The notes below the pieces were generated by a model. The model saw only the letters and a list, made by a program, of their open reading frames with translations, had not been told where the DNA came from and did no database searches. Both the position numbers and the translations under genes were made by a program. From the NCBI GenBank assembly GCA_919901555.1, contig CAKKPG010000012.1:10654-74653 (forward strand): 64,000 nt of DNA, read 5' to 3'. Numbering within the stretch: the stretch's first letter is position 1; each line of letters begins with the position of its first letter. The stretch is from Nitrospiria bacterium (GTDB lineage: Bacteria > Nitrospirota > UBA9217). Shown piece by piece: positions 9,358 through 33,043 of the stretch.

Positions 9358-12300
9358 TTATTCGGGTCCATATTCCATCCAATACCACTCCGCCTCCCGG
9401 AACTCAAGGATGCCGTCCAGCATCAGTCTGACGCCGGAGGCATCGGCGCTCGTAATCTGAAACAGGGAATTCACGGCCTTGAGGAGGTCATGGATGTTTT
9501 TTACGATGTCCTCTTCGGAGCTTGCCGTTCTGTCGCGGACTTTCCGCACATATTTTGCCGCATGGTCGAGCTTTTTCCTGTCCTTGCCGGCAGCTGAAAA
9601 AGCGTCAATGGCGGAGAGGAGATCAGCGGTCATTGCTGCGCTGTCTTTGCCTGCCGTGACGACCGCATCGAGATTCTGATACGGGACGTATGTCCCGTTC
9701 TCAACGTAACTCACCTCGGTCGAGAGCGTGTATGCTCCTTCTGCATCCGGCGTGAGGACGTAGGAGAGGATCGTCTTTGTCTCTCCTGGTTCGAGGTGGA
9801 TGTTTATGACCCACGGGTTGTCTGTTATCCATGCCTTTGTCGTCGAGTCGTAGGGCTTTACCCCTGCCGGATACGTCTCGGTCAGCCTGAGATCGGAGGC
9901 GGCGCCGAGGCTCTTGGCCTGTATCTCCACCGGAACGAGCTGATTCGGGTGGAAGGCGGTCGTATCCGGCGGCCTGTGGATGAATTCTAATGAATGTTTG
10001 ACTAAGGCTGTGAATCCGATGGTGTTTTCGCTGCCTGCCACGAGGTCGAAGGCGAAGTACAGGGCCTTGCCGTTGCCGTACTCACGCTTGATGATTGCCG
10101 GGTACTGCACCGGTTCTTTGTGCGTGGTCGCCGTAATCCATCCTATGGCGGTTTCCGGATCGGCTTCCTTGATCTTCATCACCCTGCCGAAAGACTGGAA
10201 GCTGCCCTGGATGCCGAGGTCGCTCTTAAGGATATCCACAGGATAGTTCCCTTCCGGAAGGCGGCCGTCCACCTTCATGCCGAAAAGTTCTCTCTCGATG
10301 TGCTCATGGCGGTAGCGTGAGAGGATGAGGCCCTTTCCTGCGTAGACCTGCTCCCTTAGTTCCTCGTCAAAGTGGTCTTCGAGATGATGCTGGTCGCCTA
10401 AGATCATGAAGTCCGTGTAGTATGGATTTCTCATCTCGGCCTGGAAGTCTTTTTTGTCGTAGACGATGCGGTAGTCTGTCACCGCCTCACGCAGAGCTTT
10501 CTCGAGTAGATCAACCCTCACACATTCTGCCTCGGGCAAATCCCCCCTCGCCCCCCTTTCATAAAGGGGGGTTGGGGGGATTTTCTTAGCATCTGCATCA
10601 TTCGCGTCCATTCGGGTCAATTCGCGGCTGAATTTGTTTTTCTCTGTGTCCTCTGCGTTCTCTGTGGCAAAGGGGTTTACATTTGCGTCGATTGGCGTCA
10701 ATTCGCGGCTGCCCTCTTCGCCTTCCATTTTTTGTTTTTCCCCATCTGCGTCACTCTGCGTTAATCTGCGGCCCACAGAGTCTTTTTCGCATTTCTCATT
10801 TATCCACACGAGGAGGTTCGTGACATCGGGTATTCTCTTCGTGACCTCGATCCCGGGCTTTACCTCAAAGGTCGCACTGGTTAGAGTCTTTGGCCGGGTC
10901 ATCTGGGCTGTCTGAACCTGGAGGACGGCGAGGTAGTTTTTCGGGGCAAGGCTTGAGGTCGTTATTGTTTGTGTGTTTGTGATGGTCTCTCCCCTTCTGA
11001 CTTCTGACTCCTGACTCCTGACTGCTGCCTTTGCTTCTCCGGTATCCGGATCGGCAATGACGAGTATTGCCGTGAGTCCGGCGATGTCTTCATTGCCGCT
11101 GTTCGTGACTGTGTAGGTGATCGTCTCATCCCTGCCCTGATACACGGGGTTCGGCGCTGCGGTGAGCGCGCCGGCAAGTCCCGCGCCGGTTGCGGTTGTG
11201 GACGAGAGTTCGAAGCTCGTAGTTGATGCAGAAAGGACGGCGCCGCCGGAGATGACTTCGAGCGTGACGGTGTAGGTTCCTTTCGGATTCGCGGCGGTGT
11301 TCCAGTAGCTCTTGAACGTGAACGAGGCCCCGGGCATGAGGGTGGTGAGGGTCTTGGTTTCCGTATATACCTGTATACCGCCTGCTGTATCCTGTCTGCT
11401 GATCGTGATTTTCGCCGTCAGGTTCTCGAAGATATAATTCCCGCTCTGGCTCGAGATCGTGGACGTGATGGCCGCTGTTTCATTCGGGTTGTAGCTGATC
11501 TTGTCCGTAACGACCTTTGCGCCGGCCCTTGTGTCGGGCAGTATCTCGAAGGAAGCGCGGTTTTCAGTCACCGGCCCCGCTCCTTGCGACAGGGTTGCAT
11601 GGACCTGATAAATCCCCGGCGCGGTTGTGCCCGTGTTCCAGGTGAACTGGAAGGTGCTCTCGGGAACACGCTCGGGACTGCCCGCAGCAAAACGAATTTC
11701 CGCCAATGCGGGTGAAGCACTTATGCCGAGGCCGGCACTCGCTATTTTTGCGATAGTGGTCTTTGGTCCGAATGTTCCATCACCGATTCCCGGGTAGAAT
11801 TCTAATGCCAGCTTGTCGTACGTGACTGCGATGATGTCCAGGTGGCCGTCGCTGTTGAAATCGCCCGCATCAAATGCAGCATGGCTGTGTGTGTTGAGTG
11901 AAGGGATGGCAACGGGGAGGTCAAACTGTCCCCCGCCCTTCCCTTTGTAAAAATTTGTTTCTCCGCTTGCTCCCGTATTGAAAATCAAATCAAGCTTTCC
12001 GTCCTCGTCGAAATCTCCAATTGCGCCGCCGTACGGATCCGTTCCGCTTGTTCCGATCTGTACCGGCGACACGAATGTGCCGTCCCCGTTACCCTGGTAA
12101 AGATAGAGTCCGCCGCCGCAGCAGGATGAGATGATCAAATCCAATTTACCATCACCAGTCACATCGGCAATCATTTTGCTTCTGAGAGCAACTGAGCCGG
12201 CCGGCGGTGTAAGGGTCGTTTTTGTGAACGTACCGTCCCCCTTGCCCTTGAACAGATACCAGGCGTTCAAGTTTACACTTGCGACGAAATCCTTGTTCCC

Positions 12301-15300
12301 GTCACCGTCGACATCTGCCGAAGTGATGTCCATCATATAGCTGTTCGGCGAAATATCACTTATTTTTACTTTTGCATTAAACGTATTCGTGCCGTCCGCC
12401 TTGTTCCGGAAATAGTATAATTCGCCTCGGTCACCCGACCCTGTGATGATATCGACAAACCCGTCATTATTGAAGTCGTCGAGAACGATGCCGCGGGTGA
12501 GATCGGTCCACGCGGACAGGTCTTCTATTTGCTTCACAGCGCCGAACGTCCCGTCACCCATATTTTCGACGGTAAATATCCTGCCGATCTCGTCACTAAA
12601 TGCAATAAGCTTTCCGGTCTTCGGCAGCCTCGTATTGACTGAAGGCGCTTTGGGTCCGTGGTCCACAGTATCGAAATAGATCGAGAAGTATCTCACTGAG
12701 CCCTTTGCGGCAACTCCGTCCATAAGCCAGGTGACCCTGGCGTCGGCATCCGACAGGAAGGCCGCCAGTGCCTGCTTTTCTCCTATGAGATCGCCTGCGG
12801 CGTCAAGTTCCATGACTCTGATGGAATTTTTATCAAGTACTTTGTCAGTGAGCCCCAGGTTCTGAAGGGCGGTAGTAAAAGCAATGGTTGTTTCTGCAAG
12901 CACGTCTTTCATGTCACGTGCTGCCGTTACTGTTGCGGGCATCCTGTACGACCATCCCTGATTTCCTGAGAATCTGAGATCGCTAACGGTAAATGTCGCC
13001 GCTGTCGCAACCCGGGCCCCTGACGCATCTTCGATGGAAATATCGCCCGTGCCCGACCATGCGGTTGCGTTATGGTTCTTCACTGTTACGGCAATATTCA
13101 CGTCTGATGATGCGCTATACGCCGTCTTGTCTGCCTCAAGTGTCGATGTTATCCCCGAGGTCTGAATGAACATTGTTTTTGCCGCCGCATTGTTGTCTTC
13201 GCGGGATTCAATGATGGCATTTCCGGGATCGACTGCCACGTATATCGTCTGCTGTCCCGCGAATCCGGTTGTTTTCAGCACACCCTGGACCGCTGCCCTC
13301 TCGCCCAGGGCCACTTGAGGATAGATGAACTGTTCCGTAATCAGAACACCACCGGATGCAGGGTCGCCAAAATAGAAATGCACGGGAATATTCCCGGTTG
13401 CCGCCCCCCGGTTTCGGATCGTTGCCGTGACCGTCACGGTATCGCCTTCTCGTGCCGACGCAGTTGAAAGCGCGATACTCTCATTCGTGATCTCAAGATC
13501 GGGCAGCCCGGGAGGACTCACCGTTATGGTAAAGGACGCGAGGTTGTTGTTCTCGTTCGATTCTGAGATGCTGTTGCCCGGATCAACGGAAACATAGAGC
13601 ACGTTGTCGCCCGACAGTCCGAGCGTGTCGAATGTAAATGCCACGGCTGCCGAACCGCCTGCGCCCACAGTCTGAATAACCTGATTGGTTCCAAGCTGCG
13701 TCCCGCCGGAAGCCGGGTTCCCGCAGTAAAGTCGAACACTCACATTGGAAGCTGCCGCTAAACCCTGATTCCTGACACCTGTCATTATCGGGACGAGGCT
13801 TCCCTCGGTGTACGGCGCAGGAGGAAGTGTGATGTCCGCAGCGGACGTCGTCAGATCCGGCAGCTCGCTTCCGAGGAAAGCGTCGAGGCTTGCCTGGTTG
13901 TCGTCTTCGTTGCATTCGGATACTGTGTTGTCTTTGTCCACCACTGCATAGAAATGGTGCGGCCCCGTGCTCAGGGCTTCGGTCCCGAAGGTGACGTCCT
14001 GGTACTCACCGGGCTGGAGGGCCCTCGTGGTGGGCGCGGCGCCGATGACGACGCCTGTTCCCGGCGCGCCATCATAGAACGTGACTGTTGCGCCTGCCGC
14101 CGCCTCTTTTGCCCCGCCGTTTCCGATCCTCACGGTCAAGGCGATGTAAGAGCCCACTTGTTCGGAACGGAGATGCGACGCCGTGAGGTTCGGGGCAAGG
14201 TATGGGTTGGGGCTCTCACCAACCCGCGCCTGGGTGCGGTAGGTGTTGTTCAGGAGCCAGGACGGGGATTCATACTGCGGTATGGTGCCGTCGTCATTGA
14301 CGTTCGTGACATGATAATTCGGCTGGTTCCAGATTTTGCGGGCGTTCACCCAATCGTCGTTCTTGGCTTTGTAGACCCGCAGGCTCTCGGCGCCATAGTC
14401 GTTCCCTGTCTGGGCCGCATATCCCGATACTACCGCGTCGGCATGGCCGTCGTTGTCTACGTCGGTGATTATGACGTTTTGGAAGCTGCCGCCCTCTCCG
14501 CCGAACTTTTCCTCGTACAGTAGTGTGCCGCTTTTGCCGTCGAATATGCGGAAATATTTCTGGCTGTTGATCAGCACCTCGGGCTTGCCGTCACCGTTCA
14601 GGTCGAATACAGTCGGCGCCGTTCTATCCTGCCATCCCCAGCCCCACCATTGATACGGCACATAATAGGACTGTTTTTTGTTGCCGTGCTTATCCAGAAT
14701 ATGGTAATAATTGACCCCGAGAATACCGATCTCCATCTCGCCGTCACCGTCGAAATCCGCGATAACGGGAGGACAGCCCAGATAACTTTGGGAAACGAGA
14801 GGCTCAAGGCTATTCAGACGCACCGGCCCCCATTTGACCGTGCCGTCATGCTCAAGGAGATACACGCTGCTGTTTGTGCCGTTTTCAGTTACAACGATTT
14901 CAGGATATGCGTCGTCGTCGAAATTGCCGATCGCGGTGGCTCCGCCGTCAAACGAGTTATTCCACCACCGAAGCGTTCCATCGGCATTCCAGACGGCATT
15001 GCCGGCAATGATCTCTGGTCTTCCATCGAGATCGATGTCGGCAACCGTGGACGCATAGGAACTCCAGTTAGTCGCGCCTGTCCCAACCCACGCCGGGTTC
15101 GAGATCGCGTTTGCCCACCGGATGCTTCCATCCGGGTTGATTACGGTCGATCCGGAAGTGATCTCCGGCATGCCGTCCGCATCGATGTCCGCGATAATCG
15201 GCGTCGCGTTCGAACGAATGGTTGGTTCCGGCGCATAGATGGAATGGGAATTGATCCAATCATTGACCTGTTGGCTATTGTCCCACTTTAATGTTCCGTC

Positions 15301-18276
15301 ATGCTCATAGACCAAAATACTGCATCGGGAACTGCTGGGGCAGTATTTAGGGATGACGATCTCCGGGAGACCGTCCTTGTCTATGTCGCCTGTGCTCACA
15401 TATGCATGCTGATCTAATCGGCGATTGCCATCATAGGTCGAAAATATGGTCGCTCCTGTATCGCCCCTGACCGCCCATAATTTTCCATCTCCGTAATAGA
15501 CAAGACTCGAAAATACGAGCGACGGCATGTCTTTATCATCTATCTTTCCATCACCATTGTCGTCCGTGAGGTTGGTTACGAGCACCTGTCGTGGGATCGG
15601 CTGTCCCCTCGTGCTCCACGTCCACTTCCTGACCGGCTCAATGGGATTTGCCGGCCGTTTCTCGCAATCGTCGCAGGAAATTAGGAGGTTGTTGGTTTCG
15701 CTCTGCTCAAGAATTGAGTCTGACGAGTCTATAAGTGCGTAGAGGGGCGAGTGCAGGAACTTGACGCTGCCTGAGAGGGTCACGTTGACCATGCCCGCGC
15801 CTTCGGGCCAGAGAGTGAGCGTGTTCGTGCCGGTCCCGAGCACGTTGTCCAGTCCGGGCGTATAGCTCCCGTCAAGGTCCGTGTCTTCGAACACGAGGAC
15901 GTCGAAGGAGCTGGTTATCTTGTCGTCGCCCTTGTTCTGGAACGTGACGGCGGCCGTGCCGGAAACTGACAGGGCCGAGGGGTCGGTAGTCAGGGCTGAA
16001 AGGTCGATCTTTGTGGGGACAAGGTCAGGCCCGAGGATTTCGCCCGGGGCCTTGATCTTGAGTGAGCGGATCGCCTGGTTGTTGTCTTCATAAAGTTCCG
16101 TTACGACGTTTTCGGTGTCCGCGATCGCGTAAAAACGGTACGTCCATGGCACAGCGGTAAAGGTGTAGGGGAGCGTTGTACTGCCGTCGCCGGCGATGTT
16201 GCTTATTGGGAATGTCTGGAGGAGAGCGCCGCCCTGTGCAGGATCGCCGTCGTAGAGGGCCAAGTTGAAGGCCCCGGTGTCCTTGATGCCGGTATTATGC
16301 GCCATGATGGACAGTACCACCGAATCGCCGTTCACGGGATGGGACGGAGTGAAGGTCAAGTCAGTGGCAGATATGGAAATGTCCACCATGTCGGCCATGA
16401 CGCGGGTGGAGGCACGGTTGTTGGTCTCGTTCGTCTCGATGATTGCGTTCGCCCTATCTAAGACAACATAGATGTCATGAATTCCGCTTGAAATCGTCCA
16501 ATTCGTCGTAATGGTTTCCTCTGCGCCCGCTGCGGTTGAAATAGTCGTCGTGTATATGAGATTTCCGCCAGATGGAGAAGGAGGCCCGTCATATATCTCC
16601 ACAGTAAAGCTATTTGCCGCTTCCAATCCCTCATTCCGGACAGATGCGGATATCTGAACGGTCTCAGTCGCATGGGGCCGTGATGGGGTGAGTGTTATGG
16701 TTCCAGCAACAAGATCAGCCTGCTGCTGCGCTCCGCCTGCCTGAATGGTGACTGTGCCGGTGTTGTTGGTCTCGGAGAGTTCGGTTATTGCGTTCCCGGA
16801 GTCGGCTACGAGGTACAGCATATGCGCCCCATCGCCGGTGAGCGTAACGCCGAAGGTCCCGGTGCGCACCTCGGTCCCATTGAGACCGGAGATGTGGACG
16901 GTCTGTAATAATGTGCCGCCTTGAGCGGGACTGCCATCATAGAGAGCGACGTCGAATCCGGCTGTGGATGATTCACCAATATTGCGGATAGTATAGCTGA
17001 GCGTAAAGGCCGTGCCGGATGCAGGTACATACGTCGAGGGCTTCAAATCCTCGGAGAAGACGGCAATATCAGGCGCTGTGGCGATCCAAATCCGAGTCGA
17101 GGCGATATTGTCCATCTCGTTGGTTTCTGAAATGATATTGTCAGGGTCTACTTTTACGAAGATCGTTTTTCCACCGGTGCCGGTGAAACTCTGCGTGATT
17201 GATACAGGTGCGGATGAGCTGATGGCAAGAGAGGTAATAATCTGATCAGAACCAATCTGAGTTCCACCAGCAGAAGGATCACCGAGATAGAAGCGGACGA
17301 TAATATTTGATGCGCTTTCGAAGCCGGTATTATGAACCGTCGCGGTAATAGTGACAGATTCATTTGCCTGGGGCATAGGCTTTGACAGCGAAATATCACC
17401 CGGGGAGATAGCAAGGTTCGCACGTGCGCTTGCGAGTGCGCGCAATGCGAGCGCAGTCGAATACGGGTCTTGATTCCACGAACCATCGGCGAGCTGAGTT
17501 GTGGTCAGATAATTTATCGCTCCAGGAACAGAGGCAGAAATATTCGCTCCGCTTGCGATAAGAGCATCGAGGGCGAGGGCGGATTCGTATACATTAGACG
17601 GACTTGAACCGAAACCTCCATCCGTGTTCTGCTTTGAGAGCAGATAGGCAACTCCCTTATCAATAGAACTTTGGACGTTGAAGGTGACGTTGTTGTATGA
17701 TGCCAACATCTGGAGCACAGTTGCAGTTATGTAAACATTGCTGACAATATTATCTTTGAATCCCCAGCCTCCATCTGCCCTTTGATTCGCAGTAATATAG
17801 TTTATCGCCTGGAATAGAACGCCATAGTCCGAATAATTTACGGAACGAAGAGCTTGCAGGGCGAGAGTGGTATCCAGAATGCCATCGTCAAAGCCCGCAT
17901 TTATTCCCCAACCGCCAACGGCAGGATCGCGATAATAGAGCAGCACTTCGACTTCAGCGGATGCATCCATACCTGCTCGTTTGAGCGCGGCAATCCGCCG
18001 TGAGAGATAATCCGTTGGCGAAACAGCCTGGCTGCTGAGCCACGTAAGACCCTCAGTATACGTCGAACTCGTTGGCTCAAAGACATAGACAGCATCCAGC
18101 GCAGCGGATGTGGAGTAGTACTCAGTCGTCTCTACAGCGGGCCAATTACCGGTAGTGGTCTGGGAGGAATTGAGCCAGACGAGGCCCGATGATATTTGTG
18201 GAGTTTGGGCGAAGACTGAAAAACTTATGGTCGATAACAGGATAAAAAAAACGAGGCCAAATGTACGCTTTCGCAT
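9358..18276 (-). CDS. Giant secreted multidomain protein: signal peptide, prenyltransferase/squalene-cyclase-like alpha/alpha-toroid repeat domain, CARDB modules, two FG-GAP/VCBS-like propeller-type blocks, and a unique roughly 700-aa C-terminal region
   Basis: 2972 aa. Signal peptide MRKRTFGLVFFILLSTISFSVFA. Residues about 30-300 carry repeated GGWG / DGGFG / DGSWN motifs. At least 8 CARDB-like modules follow (V.ItA.V.N.G...VD..N.I.E.NE.NN). Eight FG-GAP-like D.D.DG..E motifs occur (DIDKDGLPEIVI, DIDADGMPEI, DIDLDGRPEI, DFDGDGEMEI, DLNGDGKPEV, DVDNDGHADAVV). A second block of five follows (DFNNDGFVDI, DVDGDGNKDF, DVTGDGKLDL, DFDEDGKLDL, DFNSDGHLDI). Confidence 0.85.
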   Translation of the reverse strand: MRKRTFGLVFFILLSTISFSVFAQTPQISSGLVWLNSSQTTTGNWPAVETTEYYSTSAALDAVYVFEPTSSTYTEGLTWLSSQAVSPTDYLSRRIAALKRAGMDASAEVEVLLYYRDPAVGGWGINAGFDDGILDTTLALQALRSVNYSDYGVLFQAINYITANQRADGGWGFKDNIVSNVYITATVLQMLASYNNVTFNVQSSIDKGVAYLLSKQNTDGGFGSSPSNVYESALALDALIASGANISASVPGAINYLTTTQLADGSWNQDPYSTALALRALASARANLAISPGDISLSKPMPQANESVTITATVHNTGFESASNIIVRFYLGDPSAGGTQIGSDQIITSLAISSSAPVSITQSFTGTGGKTIFVKVDPDNIISETNEMDNIASTRIWIATAPDIAVFSEDLKPSTYVPASGTAFTLSYTIRNIGESSTAGFDVALYDGSPAQGGTLLQTVHISGLNGTEVRTGTFGVTLTGDGAHMLYLVADSGNAITELSETNNTGTVTIQAGGAQQQADLVAGTITLTPSRPHATETVQISASVRNEGLEAANSFTVEIYDGPPSPSGGNLIYTTTISTAAGAEETITTNWTISSGIHDIYVVLDRANAIIETNETNNRASTRVMADMVDISISATDLTFTPSHPVNGDSVVLSIMAHNTGIKDTGAFNLALYDGDPAQGGALLQTFPISNIAGDGSTTLPYTFTAVPWTYRFYAIADTENVVTELYEDNNQAIRSLKIKAPGEILGPDLVPTKIDLSALTTDPSALSVSGTAAVTFQNKGDDKITSSFDVLVFEDTDLDGSYTPGLDNVLGTGTNTLTLWPEGAGMVNVTLSGSVKFLHSPLYALIDSSDSILEQSETNNLLISCDDCEKRPANPIEPVRKWTWSTRGQPIPRQVLVTNLTDDNGDGKIDDKDMPSLVFSSLVYYGDGKLWAVRGDTGATIFSTYDGNRRLDQHAYVSTGDIDKDGLPEIVIPKYCPSSSRCSILVYEHDGTLKWDNSQQVNDWINSHSIYAPEPTIRSNATPIIADIDADGMPEITSGSTVINPDGSIRWANAISNPAWVGTGATNWSSYASTVADIDLDGRPEIIAGNAVWNADGTLRWWNNSFDGGATAIGNFDDDAYPEIVVTENGTNSSVYLLEHDGTVKWGPVRLNSLEPLVSQSYLGCPPVIADFDGDGEMEIGILGVNYYHILDKHGNKKQSYYVPYQWWGWGWQDRTAPTVFDLNGDGKPEVLINSQKYFRIFDGKSGTLLYEEKFGGEGGSFQNVIITDVDNDGHADAVVSGYAAQTGNDYGAESLRVYKAKNDDWVNARKIWNQPNYHVTNVNDDGTIPQYESPSWLLNNTYRTQARVGESPNPYLAPNLTASHLRSEQVGSYIALTVRIGNGGAKEAAAGATVTFYDGAPGTGVVIGAAPTTRALQPGEYQDVTFGTEALSTGPHHFYAVVDKDNTVSECNEDDNQASLDAFLGSELPDLTTSAADITLPPAPYTEGSLVPIMTGVRNQGLAAASNVSVRLYCGNPASGGTQLGTNQVIQTVGAGGSAAVAFTFDTLGLSGDNVLYVSVDPGNSISESNENNNLASFTITVSPPGLPDLEITNESIALSTASAREGDTVTVTATIRNRGAATGNIPVHFYFGDPASGGVLITEQFIYPQVALGERAAVQGVLKTTGFAGQQTIYVAVDPGNAIIESREDNNAAAKTMFIQTSGITSTLEADKTAYSASSDVNIAVTVKNHNATAWSGTGDISIEDASGARVATAATFTVSDLRFSGNQGWSYRMPATVTAARDMKDVLAETTIAFTTALQNLGLTDKVLDKNSIRVMELDAAGDLIGEKQALAAFLSDADARVTWLMDGVAAKGSVRYFSIYFDTVDHGPKAPSVNTRLPKTGKLIAFSDEIGRIFTVENMGDGTFGAVKQIEDLSAWTDLTRGIVLDDFNNDGFVDIITGSGDRGELYYFRNKADGTNTFNAKVKISDISPNSYMMDITSADVDGDGNKDFVASVNLNAWYLFKGKGDGTFTKTTLTPPAGSVALRSKMIADVTGDGKLDLIISSCCGGGLYLYQGNGDGTFVSPVQIGTSGTDPYGGAIGDFDEDGKLDLIFNTGASGETNFYKGKGGGQFDLPVAIPSLNTHSHAAFDAGDFNSDGHLDIIAVTYDKLALEFYPGIGDGTFGPKTTIAKIASAGLGISASPALAEIRFAAGSPERVPESTFQFTWNTGTTAPGIYQVHATLSQGAGPVTENRASFEILPDTRAGAKVVTDKISYNPNETAAITSTISSQSGNYIFENLTAKITISRQDTAGGIQVYTETKTLTTLMPGASFTFKSYWNTAANPKGTYTVTLEVISGGAVLSASTTSFELSSTTATGAGLAGALTAAPNPVYQGRDETITYTVTNSGNEDIAGLTAILVIADPDTGEAKAAVRSQESEVRRGETITNTQTITTSSLAPKNYLAVLQVQTAQMTRPKTLTSATFEVKPGIEVTKRIPDVTNLLVWINEKCEKDSVGRRLTQSDADGEKQKMEGEEGSRELTPIDANVNPFATENAEDTEKNKFSRELTRMDANDADAKKIPPTPLYERGARGDLPEAECVRVDLLEKALREAVTDYRIVYDKKDFQAEMRNPYYTDFMILGDQHHLEDHFDEELREQVYAGKGLILSRYRHEHIERELFGMKVDGRLPEGNYPVDILKSDLGIQGSFQSFGRVMKIKEADPETAIGWITATTHKEPVQYPAIIKREYGNGKALYFAFDLVAGSENTIGFTALVKHSLEFIHRPPDTTAFHPNQLVPVEIQAKSLGAASDLRLTETYPAGVKPYDSTTKAWITDNPWVINIHLEPGETKTILSYVLTPDAEGAYTLSTEVSYVENGTYVPYQNLDAVVTAGKDSAAMTADLLSAIDAFSAAGKDRKKLDHAAKYVRKVRDRTASSEEDIVKNIHDLLKAVNSLFQITSADASGVRLMLDGILEFREAEWYWMEYGPE

Positions 18277-18342: not shown

Positions 18343-18789
18343 CTACTCCCAATATTTTTTCTTAAAGTCACTCATAATATAAATTTCTTTCACCAGGAAT
18401 CCCATGAACACAAAGAATGATATAAGCCATACAGAATTAACAATAAAATTTGTTACGAGCAAAGCTGACAGAAATAAGGATTCTATTATGCAACTTTTCT
18501 TATTAAAAGTTTTAGCGAGCACACTTTTTATCTCTTCATAATTCTTCACTAACTGAATTACCACAATGAAGAAAAGCAGGGCTATCAAAATAATATCAAT
18601 ATAAAAAAATAACTTATTTCGCCAAAGTGCACTTCTGTAAATAATCAAAATAATTAAAACAAGAAAACCACTAAATAGTGCGTTAATAGCAAGCTTCAGA
18701 CGGTCTTTTGCAAATCTTCTAACTTTTAAATTGTGCATTATTAAATAAAGTGTTGTGTTTATAAATAACAACAGCGATTCATTATTCAT
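18343..18789 (-). CDS. Small AT-rich 4-TM membrane protein (cassette 1)
   Basis: Start MNNESLLLF at 18789 with a GGAGG SD. Very hydrophobic (I/L/F-rich). GC content is far below the flanking genes. It sits between the transglutaminase-like gene and the giant gene. Confidence 0.6.
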   Translation of the reverse strand: MNNESLLLFINTTLYLIMHNLKVRRFAKDRLKLAINALFSGFLVLIILIIYRSALWRNKLFFYIDIILIALLFFIVVIQLVKNYEEIKSVLAKTFNKKSCIIESLFLSALLVTNFIVNSVWLISFFVFMGFLVKEIYIMSDFKKKYWE

Positions 18790-18812: not shown

Positions 18813-21800
18813 TTAATAAGCCAATCCATTGCCCAGGCAATTACTTTGAGTTGCGGAGCCAGCAAAATACATTCTTATCGAATTAATCAGTATTTGAACG
18901 GGTCGAAATGTAATAAAAACGATTAGAATATTTCGCACAGTGATTGCAGCCAAAATATTTAATGCTATAGCAGCAACACAGTCTTGTGCGGTACTACTTG
19001 CCTCAGTCATGAGCCAATTCAAGAAAGCCAGATAAATTGGCAAAAGCAACGATAGAATAGCAAATGCAATGGGTCCTGCCAATATTGATAAAGCTAACAG
19101 AAGTAGACCAACACCGATGAGAAGCAACGCGCCATTTTCACCCGAACTAATCATATACGCTCCTGCCCCTGTAACTGGATCAGTAATAATATAACCACAA
19201 AGTAGGCGGTCATTGTAGCTGACATTCGTTCTTGGAACAGTAACTTCTTTTCCTGCATTTACCGCGTTCGCAATAACGCTTTTCACATCTTCACTGACCT
19301 GCAATTGCGGAAGAATAATATTTATATTCGTTTGGTTGACAGTGTAGATGGAGATTCCTTGATCACTTGCTATTTGCAACGCTTTTACTGCTGAGATACC
19401 CTGCACCACATCGCTCGGCGTCGAATACATCCGTTCTGGGATCAGATGCTCCAAGGCTGATGACATACTGCCAGATGTGAGCATATATTTTCTGACATTA
19501 TCTGTGTTTCCGTTTTTACTGAATACGGCCTGCATGATTCTGTCCACATCCATCATCATACCCCCAAAACCAGTCCACGTCGGAATTCCGAATACGGCCT
19601 GAACAGCAAGCTGCGTCGAACACAGTCCGATAGAGGGAACTCGATACCGTATTGCATCTTGTGCTTTCGCGGCAATCTCATCACTTAAATCAAGCTCATT
19701 GAAATAGGTTGTAATTGTCATAAATAAGAGATCACCAACGACATCATCTTTCGTGATCCCGCCGTAAGTCTGAGTAACTATTTTTTCTTTCGTGGTTTCA
19801 AGCTTCGCTTTGAGAGCGTTAAGTCGATCCCCTCCAACTCGTCCTGTGTCCAGACCGATCCCGTAATATTCACCCGCCTGAATCATGTTATCGATATTGC
19901 TCAATCCTATTCCCGGCTCATTAAGCGACATGGTGAACGACTGCGCACTGCCCATCGTGCCAGGAGCGCCGGTTGCCACAATTTGTCCGTCTATACGTAG
20001 TTCAGACTTGAGATTGATAAGATACGCCGGGAATGATGACGGCAGTTCACTTGGCTGGATGGGTGTGCCATCTGGATGAGGCTGAGGTAAAAATGATTCT
20101 ATAACAGCTTGATCGTTGGCAGTTGCTGGTGAGAATGACAATGTGATCTTTTTGCCCGCAAGCTCCGGGAGGCTAGCACTATAGAAAAGCCCTGTACCTG
20201 CGCCTGTGGAATCGGGAATACTGAAGCTTATGGTCGCGCGCAGGTTGTCAGGAACTTGAGCAAACTGAGAGCCGATCTGCACGGTCTTGTACGGAAGTGT
20301 TTCGGGTAATATGCCGAACTCCTGCTTGATAATCTCCTTCTTGCCGACCACATCCCCTACTGTCGCATTGGGATGGTTCTGCTGAATGTAGTTCTGCACC
20401 TGCGTCTGGTAGTCCTGCATAGTCTGCTGGATCAGGGTGGAGTTCACGTTCGTTACATACCCTTCTGTTTCATTGATCGTCGAAGTCGATTGAAGCTGAT
20501 TGGCAAAGGTTTGTGCGTCAAAGGGCACGGCTGACTGGATGTCAATTCCCTGCGTATAGGCATACTGCTTGAATGAAGGATCAAGCTGGATCCAGGTATC
20601 GGGCTGTCGATGAACGGCCCCGCGGCTCGGGATATAATCGATGAACGCGCTGACCCATACGTGTTCCATCCTCACGTATTTATAGACGCTGCCGCTGGTT
20701 TTGAGAAGCGTAACGGGAACGCCGTTGGTGGCAAGAATCGTTCCGACCATCATCGGATTGGTCACATCGCCGACCCAGTTCATTGCTTTTTCGATGGGGA
20801 TATCGACGGTGCCGTAGGCGTAGCGTGCGGAGATGCCGGACGTGCGAAGCAAAGCGATGAGCAAACTGGCAGTGTCGGTGTCGTTGCAAATCCTTGACTG
20901 AAGGCACTGGTCCGCCCCTTGGATGCTGCCATAGGTGGGTGCATATTCGATATTATTGCGGACCCATTCGTAGATTCTGAGCGGTGAGTTGCCGAGTTCG
21001 GCGGCTTTGGCGCGGATTTCGGGCGTGAATTGGACTTCGGGAGTTTCGGATAGGTCAGCGGCGGTCGGAATATCCGCTGTCTGCTGCGCGAGAAGGATCG
21101 GTGCTGAATCGGCGAAGGCTACCTGCAGAATCGCCCCCTCCCCCCCTCCCTCTCCCACAAGGGGGCGAGGGAGTTGAAGCGGAACATCACTCGCAATTTC
21201 GTTGAATGCGAGGAGAACGGGTTTCGATTGCGGCTTGCTCGCCAGGAGATCAGGCATCAACCGGCTGTCGGAGATATTACGACTGCTGTGTGACTTTTGC
21301 TTTCGAAAATCGCGCTCGAACTCTTCCTTTTTCAAGCGCGGTGCGACCGTTTTGGTCGCTTTCCGGACGCGAAACGGCAGATTCTCCGGATCGAGCCGTT
21401 GCACGAGCTTTTTCGGCCGGGTCTTGTCTAGGTGCAAACGTACTTTCTCTATCTTCGCCTTTCGCTCCGCCGGGGTCCTGGCCGCGTCTATGTCGTTTAA
21501 CTCATCCCGGAGTTGCGTGTAGTTGGCGGTATAGTTTTTAACGAACGCCGTATGCCTATCGCGTATTTCGCGGGGCAAGCCAGCGATCTTCTTCTCCGTG
21601 GCGGCGAATTCCGCCTGGAGCTGCTCATTCAAATCAGCGAGTTGGGTTTTCCTGTTCCCGACCTCCCGGATTTCCGCGGAAGCATCCTCGCCCTTTGCAT
21701 TCTTCTCGCTTGCCTTGCCGACCTTCTCGCGTATTGCCTCAAGAACACCTTCAAATTTTTCTTCGGGCTTTTGCTCTCTGCTTACTGGCTTTCCGGGCGC

Positions 21801-21935
21801 CTGTTCCACGGACGCTGCTTTCTGTTTCTCTGCGGCAAATGCAGCGGGTATCTGGAATAAAGGGCCAAATGACCATAGAAAACAGGTGAGAACAGTCCAT
21901 ACCGTGACTCGGAAGCTGAAAGAATAGGCGCGCAT
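18813..21935 (-). CDS. Membrane-anchored transglutaminase-like (papain-fold Cys-His-Asp) domain protein, cassette 1
   Basis: 1040 aa. N-terminal signal/anchor, K/E-rich coiled coil, then the core: LRIYEWVRNNIEY...GADQCLQSRICNDTDTASLLIALLRTSGISARYAYG (Cys), HVWVSAFIDY (His) and WIQLDPS (Asp). The C-terminus has several TM helices. GGAGAG SD before the ATG. Confidence 0.8.
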   Translation of the reverse strand: MRAYSFSFRVTVWTVLTCFLWSFGPLFQIPAAFAAEKQKAASVEQAPGKPVSREQKPEEKFEGVLEAIREKVGKASEKNAKGEDASAEIREVGNRKTQLADLNEQLQAEFAATEKKIAGLPREIRDRHTAFVKNYTANYTQLRDELNDIDAARTPAERKAKIEKVRLHLDKTRPKKLVQRLDPENLPFRVRKATKTVAPRLKKEEFERDFRKQKSHSSRNISDSRLMPDLLASKPQSKPVLLAFNEIASDVPLQLPRPLVGEGGGEGAILQVAFADSAPILLAQQTADIPTAADLSETPEVQFTPEIRAKAAELGNSPLRIYEWVRNNIEYAPTYGSIQGADQCLQSRICNDTDTASLLIALLRTSGISARYAYGTVDIPIEKAMNWVGDVTNPMMVGTILATNGVPVTLLKTSGSVYKYVRMEHVWVSAFIDYIPSRGAVHRQPDTWIQLDPSFKQYAYTQGIDIQSAVPFDAQTFANQLQSTSTINETEGYVTNVNSTLIQQTMQDYQTQVQNYIQQNHPNATVGDVVGKKEIIKQEFGILPETLPYKTVQIGSQFAQVPDNLRATISFSIPDSTGAGTGLFYSASLPELAGKKITLSFSPATANDQAVIESFLPQPHPDGTPIQPSELPSSFPAYLINLKSELRIDGQIVATGAPGTMGSAQSFTMSLNEPGIGLSNIDNMIQAGEYYGIGLDTGRVGGDRLNALKAKLETTKEKIVTQTYGGITKDDVVGDLLFMTITTYFNELDLSDEIAAKAQDAIRYRVPSIGLCSTQLAVQAVFGIPTWTGFGGMMMDVDRIMQAVFSKNGNTDNVRKYMLTSGSMSSALEHLIPERMYSTPSDVVQGISAVKALQIASDQGISIYTVNQTNINIILPQLQVSEDVKSVIANAVNAGKEVTVPRTNVSYNDRLLCGYIITDPVTGAGAYMISSGENGALLLIGVGLLLLALSILAGPIAFAILSLLLPIYLAFLNWLMTEASSTAQDCVAAIALNILAAITVRNILIVFITFRPVQILINSIRMYFAGSATQSNCLGNGLAY

Positions 21936-22697: not shown

Positions 22698-23573
22698 CTA
22701 TGTCTCCCCTCGCTCGCGGAACAGCCGCGACGCTCTTGCCCGCAGCGTGCATACGGGGCAGCCTCCTCTTCTGTATCTATCGATGATTCTTTCTCGATAT
22801 TCATGCCCTTTCCGGCATTTCCACCATACGAGGCGCGTGGAAAATGGGGAGACGTCCTTCGGCGTCCAGGTCCCGTTCTTCGCAGAATGCCACTCGCGGG
22901 ACAGCCACGGCGCTTTGGCCTCAAGGCAGTTCTCCTCGGCCGGCCTTCGCCCTGAACAGTAAGGGCATCCGTCTCCTTCGCTTCTGTTCTCTACAACAGA
23001 TTGCCATTCATGACCTTTTCGGCATATCCACCAGACTTTTTTGTTGGATTTAGGGAGAACATCCTTCGGCGTCAAAGGAGCATTCTTCGTATGATGCCAC
23101 TCGCGGGCAAGCTTTGGATCTACGGCCTGAAGGCAGGTATCAGCGGTTGCTTGTCGTCCTGAGCAACAAGGGCACCCGTAACCGGAGGTCCTTCTATATA
23201 AGGGGGCCGGCCACTCATGCCCTTTCTTGCACACCCACCAGACTTTCCTGCCGGAGCCGGCAGTGACATCTTTCGTCGTCAGAGGAGCATTTTTCGTCGG
23301 ATGCCACTCCCTGGCCAGCTTCGGATTTACGGTTTTTAGACAATTGTCTTTATTCACTCTTCGTCCAGAGCAATATGGGCAGCCTTCGTCTCGGCCTCTG
23401 TCCGAGATGCGAGCATCCCACTCATGACCTTTATCGCAGAGCCACCAGACTTTGATATGCGCGCCAGGGGTCACATCCTTCGGCGTAAGCGGTGCGTTCT
23501 TCGTGGGGTGCCACTGGCGTGCGAGCGCCCTGTTCACTTTAGCGAGTGTAGGTTTCACGTTCTGTTTTATCAT
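22698..23573 (-). CDS. Protein of four tandem treble-clef zinc-ribbon repeats (DUF4379-like)
   Basis: 291 aa. Four repeats of about 63 aa: LAREWHPTKNAPLTPKDV...KVWW.C.KGHEW.......GCPYCSGRR. Its ATG overlaps the stop of the upstream 527-aa ORF (ATGA). Confidence 0.7.
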   Translation of the reverse strand: MIKQNVKPTLAKVNRALARQWHPTKNAPLTPKDVTPGAHIKVWWLCDKGHEWDARISDRGRDEGCPYCSGRRVNKDNCLKTVNPKLAREWHPTKNAPLTTKDVTAGSGRKVWWVCKKGHEWPAPLYRRTSGYGCPCCSGRQATADTCLQAVDPKLAREWHHTKNAPLTPKDVLPKSNKKVWWICRKGHEWQSVVENRSEGDGCPYCSGRRPAEENCLEAKAPWLSREWHSAKNGTWTPKDVSPFSTRLVWWKCRKGHEYRERIIDRYRRGGCPVCTLRARASRLFRERGET

Positions 23574-25096
23574 GCAATGTTACTGGCTTTGGTGAGTTCG
23601 GTTATCTGATTGCCTGAATCTGCAACCAGATAAAGAGTATGCGCACCGTCTCCCCTGAGGGTCACGCCGATTGTCCCGGTGCGGACCTCCGTGCCCGTAA
23701 GGCCGGAAATATTTCCGGTCTGGAGGAGCGTCCCGCCAGAGGCGGGGTCCCCGTCGTAGAGAGATATGGTAAATGCCCCTGTCTCGGACTCGCCCAGGTT
23801 TCTGACCTTGTATTCCAGAGTGAAGGCAGTTCCGGCACTCGGAACATAGGTCGAAGGCTTGAGGTCTTCGGAGTAAACGGCAATATCAGGTTCGGTTGCT
23901 ACCCAGATGCGGGATGAGGATTTGTTGTCACTCTCTGATGTTTCGGAGATGGTATTGTCCGGGTCTGCGACAACGAAGATCGTCTTGCCGCCGGTGCCGG
24001 TAAAGGATTGAGAGATGGATGCTTGAGACGATGAATTGACGGATAAAGAAGGAAGGATTTGATCGACACCAATTTGCATGCCGCCGGCAGAGGGATCTCC
24101 AAGATAAAACCGAACAACAATATCCGATGCACTGTCATAGCCTGAATTGCGAACGTTTGCGGTGAGCGTTATCGTCTCCCCTTCTCGCGGCATGGGATTG
24201 GTGAACGATACCGATGCTACTGAAAGGTTTGGTCGTACACTCGCCAGCGCACGAAGAGCCAAAGCGGTCGAGTAAGGATCATCATTCCAACTGCCATTAG
24301 CTGATTGACTTGTAGTCAGATAATTTACCGTTGCAGGAACGACCGCTGAAACATTCGATCCGCTTGCTATCAGGGCATCAAGCGCCAGAGCTGATTCGTA
24401 AACTTTTGACGGCGAACTTCCAAAACCACCATCGGCATTCTGCTTTGAAAGCAGATAAGCGACAGCCTTGTCTATTGAGCTTTGGACATTGAAGGTAACA
24501 TTATTGTATGACGCTAACATTTGAAGTATAGTAGCAGTCAAGTAAACATTGCTGACCGCGTCATCCTTGAATCCCCAGCCGCCATCATTTTTTTGATTCG
24601 AAGTAAGATAATTTATCGCTTGGAAGAGAACGCCAAAGTCGGAATAATTTGCTGAACGAAGAGCTTGCAAGGCAAGGGTGGTATCTAAAATGCCGTCGTC
24701 AAAACCCTTATGTGTCCCCCAGCCGCCAACAACAAGATCGCGATAATAGAGCAGCACTTCGACTTCAGCGGATGCATCCATACCTGCTCGTTTGAGCGCG
24801 GCAATCCGCCGTGAGAGATAATCCGTTGGCGAAACAGCCTGGCTGCTGAGCCACGTAAGACCCTCAGTATACGTCGAACTCGTTGGCTCAAAGACATAGA
24901 CAGCATCCAGCGCAGCGGATGTGGAGTAGTACTCAGTCGTCTCTACAGCGGGCCAATTACCGGTAGTGGTCTGGGCGGAATTGAGCCACCTGAGGCCTGT
25001 CGGAATTTGCGGTATTTGAGCGGATGCAAAAGAGGTAAATAAAAACATTAAGAATGAACCAATCAGAAAGCTCAAGCGACTTGCTCTTTTGAACAT
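23570..25096 (-). CDS. Truncated paralog of the giant protein (signal peptide, alpha/alpha-toroid domain and about 2.5 CARDB modules); possibly a decayed copy
   Basis: Start MFKRASRLSFLIG at 25096 with a GGAGGAGG SD. About 80 aa of the mature N-terminus are identical to the giant protein. It ends inside a CARDB module (LYLVADSGNQITELTKASNIA-stop) where the giant protein continues. Confidence 0.6.
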   Translation of the reverse strand: MFKRASRLSFLIGSFLMFLFTSFASAQIPQIPTGLRWLNSAQTTTGNWPAVETTEYYSTSAALDAVYVFEPTSSTYTEGLTWLSSQAVSPTDYLSRRIAALKRAGMDASAEVEVLLYYRDLVVGGWGTHKGFDDGILDTTLALQALRSANYSDFGVLFQAINYLTSNQKNDGGWGFKDDAVSNVYLTATILQMLASYNNVTFNVQSSIDKAVAYLLSKQNADGGFGSSPSKVYESALALDALIASGSNVSAVVPATVNYLTTSQSANGSWNDDPYSTALALRALASVRPNLSVASVSFTNPMPREGETITLTANVRNSGYDSASDIVVRFYLGDPSAGGMQIGVDQILPSLSVNSSSQASISQSFTGTGGKTIFVVADPDNTISETSESDNKSSSRIWVATEPDIAVYSEDLKPSTYVPSAGTAFTLEYKVRNLGESETGAFTISLYDGDPASGGTLLQTGNISGLTGTEVRTGTIGVTLRGDGAHTLYLVADSGNQITELTKASNIA

Positions 25097-25160
25097 AGCT
25101 CCTCCTCCGACACCGATGATCCCAGCATGCATGATAACCACAGGCGCAAGCATAGAAAAA

Positions 25161-26379: not shown

Positions 26380-29300
26380 TCACTGAACAGGGGGGTCGCA
26401 GTGAGTAGCTAATTCTCTGCATTTTGCGCCCTGATTAACGGCCCATGCCACCATACCTGCGCCAATCAGTATTGCAGCAGCATATCCGAACCACCCTCCA
26501 AAGAATTGCATTACCATCGCTATTCCTAAAAATCCTTTAAACAGTTTCTCCAAGCTGCCACTAACAACGAGACCAACACAACCCCAATATTCACTACTAT
26601 GAAAATATTTTATACAATTGCCACCTGCCTGACTAATATAGGTTTCCTCGAGTTCCGCTGCAGCTGCTTCTGTTACTAAGAAGTGTAACGCGATATTAAC
26701 AAAGGGGGCCAGGAGGAAGCCTCCACTTGTCCCTCCGCTTATCATGTACGCTCCGGCACCCGTATTGGGATCTATAATTATATAGCCACACCCGTCCCAG
26801 CCGTTAATATTTATATTCCTTTTCGGAACCGCAATTATTTTTCCCGCATTCAGAGCATCTTGAATATGTTTTTTGACGTCAGCGGCGACTTGAAGTTGTG
26901 AATTAATTATGCTTGCATTTTCCTGATTAATACTATAAATCGGTATGCCCTGCTCACTTGCTATCTGTAACGCTTTAACCGCTGAAAGCCCCTCAACTGA
27001 ATTGCTTGGTGTAGAAAATATCTGCTCTGGGGTTCTGCTTTCGAAAGCAGAAGACACCCCGCCTGATGCGAGCATGTATTCTCTCAATTTGTTCATATCT
27101 CCGTCTTTGCTAAACACGGCTTGCATAATCCTGTCCACATCCATCATCATACCCTTGGAACTGACGGTTTTTGGTATGCCAAATATTTCCTCGACATTCA
27201 TGTGCAAATAGAACATTCCTACAGATGATGTCCTGTATCGAATCACATTTTTTACCTTAGCTGTAATTTCATCAACGGTATCGAGGTCGGCGAAATAATT
27301 AATAGCTGTAAAATACAGCAAATCACCGACAAGAGCATCTTTCGTAAGAGTGGTATAATCTTTTGTCACTAAAAGATTTTTCGTTTCGGCGAGTTTGTCC
27401 TTTATATTTCTCAAAACCTTCTCAGCAATCTTACCTGTATTTAAACCTATACCAAAATATTCACCAGCTTGAATTATATTATCGATACGGCTCACACCAA
27501 AACCCGGCTCAGTAAGCGACATGGTGAACGATTGTGCGCTTCCCATAGTGACAGAAGAACCAGTTGCCACAACCAGGCCCTCTATGCGGAGTTCTGGCTT
27601 GAGATTGATGAGATACGCTGGCAATGAGCCGGGGGTTGCTTGAAGATATGTTTCTATAATGGTTTTATCGTTGGCTGTAGCCGGTGAGAAGGAGAGCGTG
27701 ATCTTCTTTCCAGCTATCTGAGGCAGGCTGGTGCTATAGGAAAGTCCAGCACTCATGCCAGTGGGGTCGGGAATGCTGAAGCTGATGGTCGCGCGGAGAC
27801 TGTCGGGAATCTGTGCAAACTGCAATCCAACAAGGATGGTCTTATACGGCAGCGTCTCGGGCAGGATTCCGAATTCCTGTTTAATGATCTCCTTCTTCCC
27901 GAGAACATCGCCGACAGTGGCGTTGGGATAGTTTTGGTTGATGTAATTCTGAACCTGTGTTTGATAATCCTGCATGGTCTGCTGGACCAAAGCGGAGTTC
28001 ACATTCGTTACATACCCTTCTGTTTCGTTGATAGTGGCTGTTGCCTTGATCTGGTCTGCCAAAGCTTGGGCATCAAAGGGCACAGCTGTCTTGATATCGA
28101 TTCCCTGGGTGTAAGTGTACTGCTTGTAGCTCGGGTCGAGCGGCACCCAGGTATCGCCCTGTTTGTGGACCGCCCCGCGACTTGGAATATAGTCGATCCA
28201 AGCCCTTACGTAAACATGTTCGAGTTGTACGGCTTTATATGTTCCGCCGCTTGTCTTCATGAGTGTTACTGGTATGCCATTGGTGGCGAGAATCGTTCCA
28301 GCCATCTTTGGGTCAGTCACACCACCGACGAGGTTCATGGCTTTTTCGATGGGAATTTCGATTGTGGAATATTCGTAATGGGAGTATACCCCTGATACTC
28401 TGAGGAGAGCGATGAGCAAACTGGCAGTGTCGGTGTCGTTGCAAATCCTTGACTGAAGGCACTGGTCCGCCCCCTGGATACTGCCATAGGTGGGTGCGTA
28501 TTCGATGTTATTGCGAACCCATTCGTAGATTCTGAGCGGTGAGTAACTGAGTTCCTGGGCCTTGGCCTTGATGTCGTCAGTGAACTGTATTTCGATCCCG
28601 TTTTCGGCGAGGTCTTCGGCTGTCGGCGCGTCGCCCGCTTGCGCAAGGAGGAATGATGATGAATCGGAGAAAGCTAATTGTGATTGCAAGTTGAGGATTT
28701 CAGATTTCGGATTGAGACCACCCCTCACCCCCGCCCTCTCCCCTGATGGGCGAGGAATTTGGAAAGGAACGTCGCTCGCAGTTTCATTGAATGCCAGGAG
28801 AACGGGTTTGTATTGCCGGCGGCTCGACAGAAGATCAGGCATCAACCGGATTTCGGCAACCTTCCGTTTGTTCTGCGTCTTCTGTTGTGGAAAGTCACGC
28901 TCGAAGTCTTCCCGTTTCAAGCGCGGTTCGCGCGTCTTTGTAACCTTTCTGGCTTTAAACGGCAAATTGTTCGGATCAAGTTTTTGATGGCGCGAGGGGC
29001 CTTTGGTCTTTTCGAGAAATACCCTGACCTTCCCGGCTGCAATCCTGGCTTCGTCCCCTGTCTTTGCTTTTTCTACACCGTCCAGGTGGGTCCTGAGAGC
29101 GCTCAGGCCCTCACCGTATCTCTTCACGAACGCCCTCTGCCGCTGTTTAATCACCTCCGGGAGGTTTTTGATCTTGGTTTCGGTTTCCTTGAATTGCCTC
29201 TGTAATTCCGTGTCAAGCGTCTCCAACTCGCTCTTCTCGGCTTTGAGCTTCTCGCGGTCCTCTCCTGCTTCTCCTATCCGGTTGAGGCTCTCCCGGAATT

Positions 29301-29478
29301 TTTCTTCGGTCGATTTTCGTCTTTCCTGTCCGCTGGTCGCCGCCTTTTGCCCTTTCGTCCCCCTGGACCCCGCCGCGGCATAAGAGGCTGGAATTTGGAA
29401 TAAAGGCCCGAAACACCATAAATACAGCATGAGGGTGATACTGGCCGTGATTTTCAAATTCATAGAATAAGTCCGCAT
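26380..29478 (-). CDS. Membrane-anchored transglutaminase-like domain protein, cassette 2
   Basis: 1032 aa, a paralog of 18813..21935 with the same coiled coil, TGase core (ICNDTDTASLLIALLRVSG / HVYVRAWIDY / WVPLDPS) and C-terminal TM region. Confidence 0.8.
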   Translation of the reverse strand: MRTYSMNLKITASITLMLYLWCFGPLFQIPASYAAAGSRGTKGQKAATSGQERRKSTEEKFRESLNRIGEAGEDREKLKAEKSELETLDTELQRQFKETETKIKNLPEVIKQRQRAFVKRYGEGLSALRTHLDGVEKAKTGDEARIAAGKVRVFLEKTKGPSRHQKLDPNNLPFKARKVTKTREPRLKREDFERDFPQQKTQNKRKVAEIRLMPDLLSSRRQYKPVLLAFNETASDVPFQIPRPSGERAGVRGGLNPKSEILNLQSQLAFSDSSSFLLAQAGDAPTAEDLAENGIEIQFTDDIKAKAQELSYSPLRIYEWVRNNIEYAPTYGSIQGADQCLQSRICNDTDTASLLIALLRVSGVYSHYEYSTIEIPIEKAMNLVGGVTDPKMAGTILATNGIPVTLMKTSGGTYKAVQLEHVYVRAWIDYIPSRGAVHKQGDTWVPLDPSYKQYTYTQGIDIKTAVPFDAQALADQIKATATINETEGYVTNVNSALVQQTMQDYQTQVQNYINQNYPNATVGDVLGKKEIIKQEFGILPETLPYKTILVGLQFAQIPDSLRATISFSIPDPTGMSAGLSYSTSLPQIAGKKITLSFSPATANDKTIIETYLQATPGSLPAYLINLKPELRIEGLVVATGSSVTMGSAQSFTMSLTEPGFGVSRIDNIIQAGEYFGIGLNTGKIAEKVLRNIKDKLAETKNLLVTKDYTTLTKDALVGDLLYFTAINYFADLDTVDEITAKVKNVIRYRTSSVGMFYLHMNVEEIFGIPKTVSSKGMMMDVDRIMQAVFSKDGDMNKLREYMLASGGVSSAFESRTPEQIFSTPSNSVEGLSAVKALQIASEQGIPIYSINQENASIINSQLQVAADVKKHIQDALNAGKIIAVPKRNININGWDGCGYIIIDPNTGAGAYMISGGTSGGFLLAPFVNIALHFLVTEAAAAELEETYISQAGGNCIKYFHSSEYWGCVGLVVSGSLEKLFKGFLGIAMVMQFFGGWFGYAAAILIGAGMVAWAVNQGAKCRELATHCDPPVQ

Positions 29479-32969: not shown

Positions 32970-33043
32970 AGCTCCTCCGGATATCTCAATGAATATCTTC
33001 AATGCAGAGAGACAAAACATACTACCTCAAACGTCACTCGATT

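Follow-up and report, generated by a model that had tools for sequence, protein, structure and literature searches.

Probable ectopic gene conversion among three tandem transglutaminase-toroid cassettes of an uncultured groundwater Nitrospirota bacterium

We analyzed a stretch of 64,000 nucleotides (nt) from the chromosome of an uncultured Nitrospirota bacterium of the Hainich groundwater well H41 (contig CAKKPG010000012.1, positions 10,654 to 74,653; hereafter referred to as the window), which carries a tandem array of three cassettes, all oriented alike. Each cassette encodes, in this order, a secreted transglutaminase-like (TGase) protein with a Transglut_core domain and about 1040 amino acids (aa; TG1 to TG3), between one and three small polytopic membrane proteins, and a secreted protein (G1 to G3). 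The N-terminal domain of the G proteins matches alpha/alpha-toroid models (squalene-hopene cyclase, prenyltransferase, and macroglobulin-TED) and is followed by CARDB repeats, with FG-GAP repeats also present in G1. An exact-repeat search and alignment revealed a block of 240 identical nt shared by G1 and G2, the sole outstanding direct repeat of the window (17925-18164 = 24736-24975, offset 6811). We consider it highly probable that the three cassettes have exchanged sequence more than once by ectopic (non-allelic) gene conversion and that this block is the most recent of the resulting tracts. The G genes, the two block copies, and the zone next to them are as follows.

9358..18276, minus strand: G1, 2972 aa, secreted; signal peptide, squalene-cyclase/TED-like toroid, eight CARDB and FG-GAP repeats (list of open reading frames (ORFs), Pfam)
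23570..25153, minus strand: G2, short paralogue of 527 aa; toroid and two CARDB; annotated as 508 aa starting at 25096
30213..33020, minus strand: G3, paralogue of 935 aa; toroid and four CARDB
17925..18164, minus strand: block copy 1, in G1 (exact-repeat search, alignment; synonymous divergence (dS) = 0)
24736..24975, minus strand: block copy 2, in G2 (exact-repeat search, alignment; present in the ENA assemblies L129 and L130)
17749..17924, minus strand: zone 3' of the block with intermediate G1-G2 divergence (81% nt, dS 0.74)

The block covers G1 codons 38-117 and the matching G2 codons, so that the two proteins share 80 identical residues where the mature alpha/alpha-toroid domain begins, just past the signal peptide. 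Read in gene orientation, G1-G2 identity falls to 80%, 81%, and 78% in successive 100-nt windows 3' of the block, and to 72% across the 47 nt 5' of it, followed by 35% in the signal-peptide region. The dS between G1 and G2 (Nei-Gojobori) is 0 in the block, 0.74 over the next 60 codons, and 1.6 over the next 100 codons, beyond which it is saturated; the intermediate zone 3' of the block is read as the trace of an older conversion. G3 is 66.7% identical to the block at the nt level (dS about 2.0), and both the G1-G3 and the G2-G3 comparisons give a dS of about 2 there. These measurements agree with the initial annotation in its account of about 80 identical residues with identity at synonymous sites, flanks of roughly 70-80%, and a third cassette about 65% identical over the block. 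Its 238-nt interval in G1 (17927-18164) was right to 2 nt, but the partner interval (24727-24964) was off by 9-11 nt, and the literal strings of the two intervals differ. Likewise, the two ORFs at 17901-18095 and 24685-24906 (MLSMSLSQRV...) are indeed spurious, the same frame being stop-rich in G3, but they are not antisense, as had been stated: they lie on the same minus strand in the +1 frame.

We then applied a fragment test of the Sawyer/GENECONV type to a codon alignment of the first ~540 residues of G1, G2, and G3 (631 polymorphic sites; 2000 permutations). The G1-G2 concordant run extended over 81 consecutive polymorphic sites, while the permuted maximum had a mean of 6.1 and a 99.9th percentile of 12, and 0 of the 2000 permutations reached 81; chance is therefore excluded for the main block. 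Fragments of the G2-G3 and TG1-TG2 pairs were likewise significant (p <= 0.001), with two such fragments in TG1-TG2 (p = 0.0005). The additional tracts are listed here.

23729..24088, minus strand: older G2-G3 tract, G2 side (89.7% nt, dS 0.38, 94% aa)
31605..31964, minus strand: G2-G3 tract, G3 side, partner of 23729..24088
20853..20989, minus strand: TGase tract, TG1 side (66-nt exact run, 132/137 identical nt, p = 0.0005)
28408..28544, minus strand: TGase tract, TG2 side (66-nt exact run, 132/137 identical nt)

G2 is a mosaic with a G1-like N-terminal part and a G3-like C-terminal CARDB part: its nearest paralogue is G1 at residues 38-290 and G3 at residues 351-470 (94% aa). The G2-G3 tract spans ~360 nt, over which G1-G2 divergence is saturated, and G1 and G3 are 82% identical in aa at G1 residues 291-350, versus 60% for G1-G2 at the same place. 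In the TGase genes, TG1 and TG2 share a 66-nt exact run (20853-20918 = 28408-28473) within the 137 nt of 96.4% identity, which encode the catalytic-Cys motif; this near-identical run had been noticed in the initial annotation over 146 nt, across which identity is 93.2%. The tracts between the other pairs (G2-G3, G1-G3, and TG1-TG2) differ in age. Divergence is mosaic rather than uniform, as the dS gradient and the tracts in other pairs show, and the proposal of recent gene conversion between paralogues is backed by a dS of 0 set against divergent flanks, by the fragment test, and by tracts of other ages.

Independent assemblies and the polymorphic tract edge

Both block copies exist in one genome. 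Replicate samples from well H41 gave two independent ENA assemblies, R3 (L129; 18.1 kilobases (kb), coverage 20) and R2 (L130; 22.1 kb, coverage 33), which differ from the window by 2 mismatches in 17,605 nt and 4 mismatches in 19,243 nt, respectively (both > 99.97% identity), and each holds both copies in the window's context. The copies stand in the same order across 17-19 kb in all three assemblies (the window's 87-kb NCBI contig, ENA R2, and ENA R3). Moreover, in two sequencing runs the Logan contigs assembled with k = 31 stop at 18135 (L141, L142) and at 24946 (L138), which is exactly k - 1 = 30 nt inside the block on the upstream side of each copy, and the raw reads therefore hold the block in two contexts; the 66-nt TGase repeat interrupts Logan contigs in the same way, at 30 nt from its edge. 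Given the independent assemblies and these break points, a chimeric join is very unlikely, and the concern that the identity might be an assembly artefact was not borne out, both copies recurring in the same context in two independent replicate assemblies.

The same-well assemblies differ at the very edge of the tract, at one site.

24976, minus strand: polymorphic site abutting the block; G (Ala, GCC) in the window and in Logan ERR3858120, T (Ser, TCC) in ENA R2 and R3

This site accounts for one of the two mismatches of L129 and one of the four of L130, and in both G2 is switched to the G1 base. The 12 bases beyond 24976 are identical in both copies anyway, and we infer that the identical block measures 253 nt in the R2 and R3 assemblies. 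By a rough estimate, a random single-nucleotide polymorphism (SNP) would fall on the tract boundary and also switch to the paralogue base with a probability of ~10^-4 to 10^-3. In a contig from another sample (L139, SRR32696712), G2 is 99.85% identical, with one SNP within the block (24917) and one SNP matching the G1 state. These differences suggest that conversion at the 24976 site is recurrent in the natural population, with tract ends varying. At the 24976 site, Ala is found in the nearest short-form orthologues (P0124 and P0129); it is therefore probably the native state of G2, and G2 the recipient, so that the transfer probably ran from G1 to G2, as far as sequence comparison can tell. 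Segment-wise identities to orthologues gave no direction of transfer because the family is patchy across species.

The proposed course of events would begin with RecA-type homologous recombination between the 5' parts of G1 and G2, which are direct repeats, ~80% identical and 6.8 kb apart, and would be seeded in residual runs of identity left by earlier exchanges. Heteroduplex repair would then copy ~240-253 nt from one gene to the other and leave the flanks unchanged. Repeated events with different end points could produce both the dS gradient and the mosaic of G1-like and G3-like segments in G2. Tracts of a few hundred bases are typical of ectopic conversion in bacteria.

Relatives of the cassettes

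No close relatives of the cassettes were found among the GTDB species representatives, in which matches had at most 34% identity. Metagenome cassettes had 40-65% protein identity (best 65%), and the order TGase, small ORF, and G gene is kept in these relatives, often in tandem (L051, L053, L057-L060, and L134). On the two-cassette contigs of relatives (L051, L134, and L059), the paralogues are merely 70-74% identical in nt and have no near-identical blocks, and the perfect block is therefore lineage-specific and recent rather than a family-wide constraint. The C-terminal region of the TGase proteins is 74% identical between TG3 and L049, versus 35-37% between TG3 and TG1 or TG2. In the adjacent toroid domains, G1, G3, L049, and L050 are all 61-67% alike (G3-L049 64%, G3-G1 65%). 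TGase orthology thus has no counterpart in the adjacent toroid, which indicates that the G paralogues exchanged sequence after their partner genes had diverged.

The relatives also bear on the status of G2, which had been taken for a truncated paralogue of 527 aa. A length of about 505-515 aa is common among the G2 homologues, many of which share the end point of G2 (...ITELSKTNNTA); the short form with this stop position is kept in P0124, P0129, and L051, and L051 has a short G gene together with a DUF4379 gene in the order TGase, short G (~500 aa), DUF4379 gene (61% aa identity), TGase, and G. Hence, G2 is better described as a conserved short form. Hybrid proteins joining the G2 5' end to the G1 body, of the kind that deletion or duplication would leave, were not present among the recorded G2 homologues.

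Two further observations concern the relatives themselves. The short-G genes of L050 (3395-3805) and L051 (6974-7384), both from metagenome Ga0137338, are 86% identical in nt across their last 411 nt and 51-60% identical in aa elsewhere. These 411 nt correspond to the region of the G2-G3 tract in the window, and the likeness may reflect a parallel exchange if both contigs come from one genome. In L058, positions 1-127 and 5154-5280 are 100% identical, such that the contig start matches an internal part of its own G gene; a contig break at a perfect repeat as long as a k-mer hints either at near-identical paralogue segments there too or at an assembly-graph artefact.

A cultured member of the Geobacteraceae, Geotalea daltonii FRC-32 (L133, CP001390.1 3832906-3855881), carries a single pair of TGase and giant toroid protein, namely a transglutaminase-like protein of 991 aa and a protein of 2901 aa in which an N-terminal squalene-cyclase-like toroid is combined with CarboxypepD_reg repeats. 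Like the cassettes of the window, this pair has a secreted Transglut_core protein of ~1000 aa directly ahead of a giant protein whose N-terminal part is a squalene-cyclase-like toroid, but it is single, has no small membrane ORFs between the genes, and carries CarboxypepD_reg instead of CARDB. A literature search found no paper combining the transglutaminase and toroid domains of this gene pair. The pair is uncharacterised and widely conserved (Nitrospirota, Thermodesulfovibrionales, and Geobacteraceae), and its single copy in G. daltonii is a possible experimental handle on it.

Alternative explanations and known systems

Several points weigh against gene conversion as the origin of the block. 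We infer the recombination mechanism, the direction of transfer, and the continuation of the process from the patterns described above. The toroid gene trees are not robust, G1-G3 being monophyletic in one tree and not in another, and the argument for concerted evolution is therefore based on identity matrices only. Amino-acid constraint on the catalytic motif contributes to the similarity of the TGase tract. In addition, all assemblies are short-read, and bubble-popping could hide a few differences, with the true identity perhaps slightly below 100%.

Alternatively, the pattern might reflect programmed or selected recombinational variation, in which the direct repeats act as a switch that, through conversion or through deletion and duplication between cassettes, makes chimeric surface proteins or changes the body behind a given promoter and signal peptide, much as with babA/babB in Helicobacter pylori or opa and pil in Neisseria. 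The proteins are secreted, repeat-rich, and adhesin-like and stand in a tandem array of distinct composition (GC content at third codon positions (GC3) of 0.5-0.6 versus 0.8 for the chromosome). Mosaic patterns occur in all three pairs and extend across species, a natural population varies at the tract edge, and the mosaic and this edge polymorphism are the sole positive support for a switch. On the other hand, no recombinase, reverse transcriptase, or dedicated element adjoins the array among the ORFs scanned (within the array nearly all those of at least ~100 aa, and in the rest of the window the large ones). G1, G2, and G3 are complete, each with a start codon and signal peptide, and are not silent cassettes; recorded homologues contain no recombinant junction between a G2 5' end and a G1 body; and related two-cassette loci have no near-identical blocks. 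Strains lie 2-4 SNPs apart across 17-19 kb, and any such variation is slow. We regard programmed variation as quite unlikely. A broader version, in which the array is a recombination-driven surface-variation locus whose toroid module is kept interchangeable while cassettes are swapped, deleted, or duplicated to set adhesin bodies behind different leaders, also appears unlikely, though a little easier to entertain; were it true, the edge polymorphism at 24976 would be a glimpse of ongoing variation in the aquifer population.

An assembly artefact, through collapse, bubble-popping, or polishing of similar copies or through a chimeric join across the repeat, is very unlikely as an explanation of the block. 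All assemblies are of short-read metagenomes, and bubble-popping can erase a few true differences, L139 having a SNP in the block at 24917; the 240-nt repeat, furthermore, exceeds the usual k. However, three assemblies place both copies in the same order across 17-19 kb, and the k = 31 contigs of two runs branch at both copies, 30 nt inside the block on its upstream side, as a true exact repeat in the reads would make them do. Collapse of a direct repeat would lose the intervening 6.8 kb and not yield two copies, and it cannot yield tracts elsewhere, of other ages; the abrupt change from 100% to 80% identity likewise speaks against an artefact.

Purifying selection at the nt level, whereby an embedded RNA, a regulatory site, or an overlapping ORF keeps the copies identical, is scarcely credible: although both copies contain an open out-of-frame ORF (64 or 73 aa), G3 (66.7% nt, dS about 2) and the orthologues vary freely over the block, several stops interrupt the alternative frame in G3, shuffled sequences are predicted to fold as stably as the block RNA (z = 0.00), and the block has no Rfam match and promoter and terminator consensus matches at background level.

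Several specific systems were considered as candidates and rejected. The overlapping out-of-frame ORF was not accepted as a real gene, since its frame is closed in G3. A diversity-generating retroelement was discarded because the ORFs scanned contain no reverse transcriptase domain and the copies are identical rather than differing at adenines. Site-specific inversion or a shufflon was rejected in view of the direct orientation of the repeats and of the absence of a recombinase among the ORFs scanned in or adjoining the array, the only transposase being of the IS66 type (43106-44413). Silent-cassette antigenic variation of the pilE/pilS type does not fit G1 to G3, which are intact with signal peptides, or the short G2 form, which is kept in relatives.

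Ectopic conversion and concerted evolution of paralogues are known from tufA/tufB in Salmonella and Escherichia coli, and multigene families have been surveyed for them in enterobacteria. The window has in common with conversion of the tuf type short tracts of identity (tens to hundreds of nt) in diverged paralogues, detection by fragment-length tests and low dS, and the assumption of intrachromosomal recombination; however, tuf genes are homogenised as a whole, in contrast to segments only in the window, where they belong to non-essential, compositionally atypical surface-protein cassettes. In Helicobacter pylori, the 5' and 3' segments of babA/babB/babC and other Hop genes are homogenised, and chimeras arise by gene conversion. 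Surface-protein paralogues such as these may offer the closest analogy, as they also have 5' regions rendered near-identical by intragenomic recombination, with tracts that vary between strains. The protein families are nevertheless unrelated, the copies of the window are adjacent tandem cassettes, and the phase variation, chimera-dependent expression, and host-driven selection of H. pylori have left no sign in the window. The silent-cassette systems Neisseria pilE/pilS, Borrelia vlsE, and Anaplasma msp2 combine one expression site with many promoterless partial donors and high switching. Segmental, unidirectional copying between related sequences is shared with these systems, but the three copies in the window are intact genes, and the short copy is kept as an intact ORF in relatives.

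Concerted evolution has been the subject of a prokaryote-wide survey (PMC6053082). The array is a new instance of a known process, bacterial ectopic gene conversion with partial concerted evolution, and as the process itself is textbook, its general significance is modest. It adds an uncultured subsurface bacterium to the cases of segmental gene conversion, and the example is clean and independently reproduced, with same-well assemblies that differ at the tract edge. Moreover, the mosaic evolution of this family of toroid/CARDB surface proteins matters for trees, orthologue definition, and strain binning at these loci.

Gene content and composition of the array

The remaining genes of the three cassettes are given below.

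18813..21935, minus strand: TG1, secreted transglutaminase-like protein of 1040 aa with a variable hydrophobic C-terminal tail, cassette 1
26380..29478, minus strand: TG2, transglutaminase-like protein of 1032 aa, cassette 2
33562..36813, minus strand: TG3, transglutaminase-like protein of 1083 aa, cassette 3
18343..18789, minus strand: S1, cassette-specific small polytopic membrane protein, AT-rich (GC3 0.32)
25927-26349 (S2), 25477-25884 (X2a), 25161-25484 (X2b), and 33044-33544 (S3): counterparts of S1, non-homologous to it
22698..23573, minus strand: DUF4379 gene with four treble-clef zinc fingers and no signal peptide; its ATG overlaps the G2 stop (ATGA)

The ATGA overlap couples the DUF4379 gene translationally to the secreted short G2 protein, a pairing also found in L051. 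The array (window 9358-37200) has a GC3 of 0.49-0.63, versus 0.76-0.86 in the flanking housekeeping and chemotaxis genes, and of ~0.3 in its small ORFs and TGase tails. This atypical composition points to acquisition as an island or to selection of a different kind. The neighbours of the array include purF, purB, ribBA, and ribE, as well as chemotaxis and two-component genes.

TG1 is 100% identical to an annotated protein of a Nitrospirota metagenome-assembled genome, encoded on an 87-kb contig that also carries G2 in its 508-aa form. TG1, TG2, and TG3 each have a signal peptide and end in 110-150 hydrophobic residues that show no relation from one cassette to another. These variable tails start after the conserved motif GYIItDPxTGAGAYMISGG, and AT-rich, mutually non-homologous small membrane ORFs come next. 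The last 110-150 TGase codons and the small membrane ORFs lie within AT-rich segments of 28-38% GC (18200-19100, 25100-26350, and 33000-33800). Among full-length homologues, 104 of 108 have hydrophobic, transmembrane-like tails. From its sequence, the tail resembles a membrane anchor that evolves fast and has partner proteins, a simpler reading than a toxin/immunity pair. A polymorphic toxin-immunity function of the tails and small ORFs was considered and rejected, with 104/108 tails hydrophobic and no toxin match in Pfam or NCBIfam.

Other features lie between or near the cassettes. Genes encoding XRE-type helix-turn-helix (HTH) proteins stand divergently upstream of cassettes 1 and 2 (22277-22630 and 29831-30163, both plus strand), with a similar HTH gene between the L134 cassettes, and may be cassette-specific regulators. 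Directly upstream of cassette 3 are a DUF5615/Mut7-C PIN-like gene (36832-37191, minus strand) and a DUF6788 gene (37628-38050, minus strand), which may be toxin-antitoxin-like island cargo. The IS66-family transposase ORF (43106-44413, minus strand) is located ~6 kb past the array, and the exact-repeat scan also recovered a tandem-like exact repeat of 25 nt with a 15-nt offset at window positions 38203-38242.

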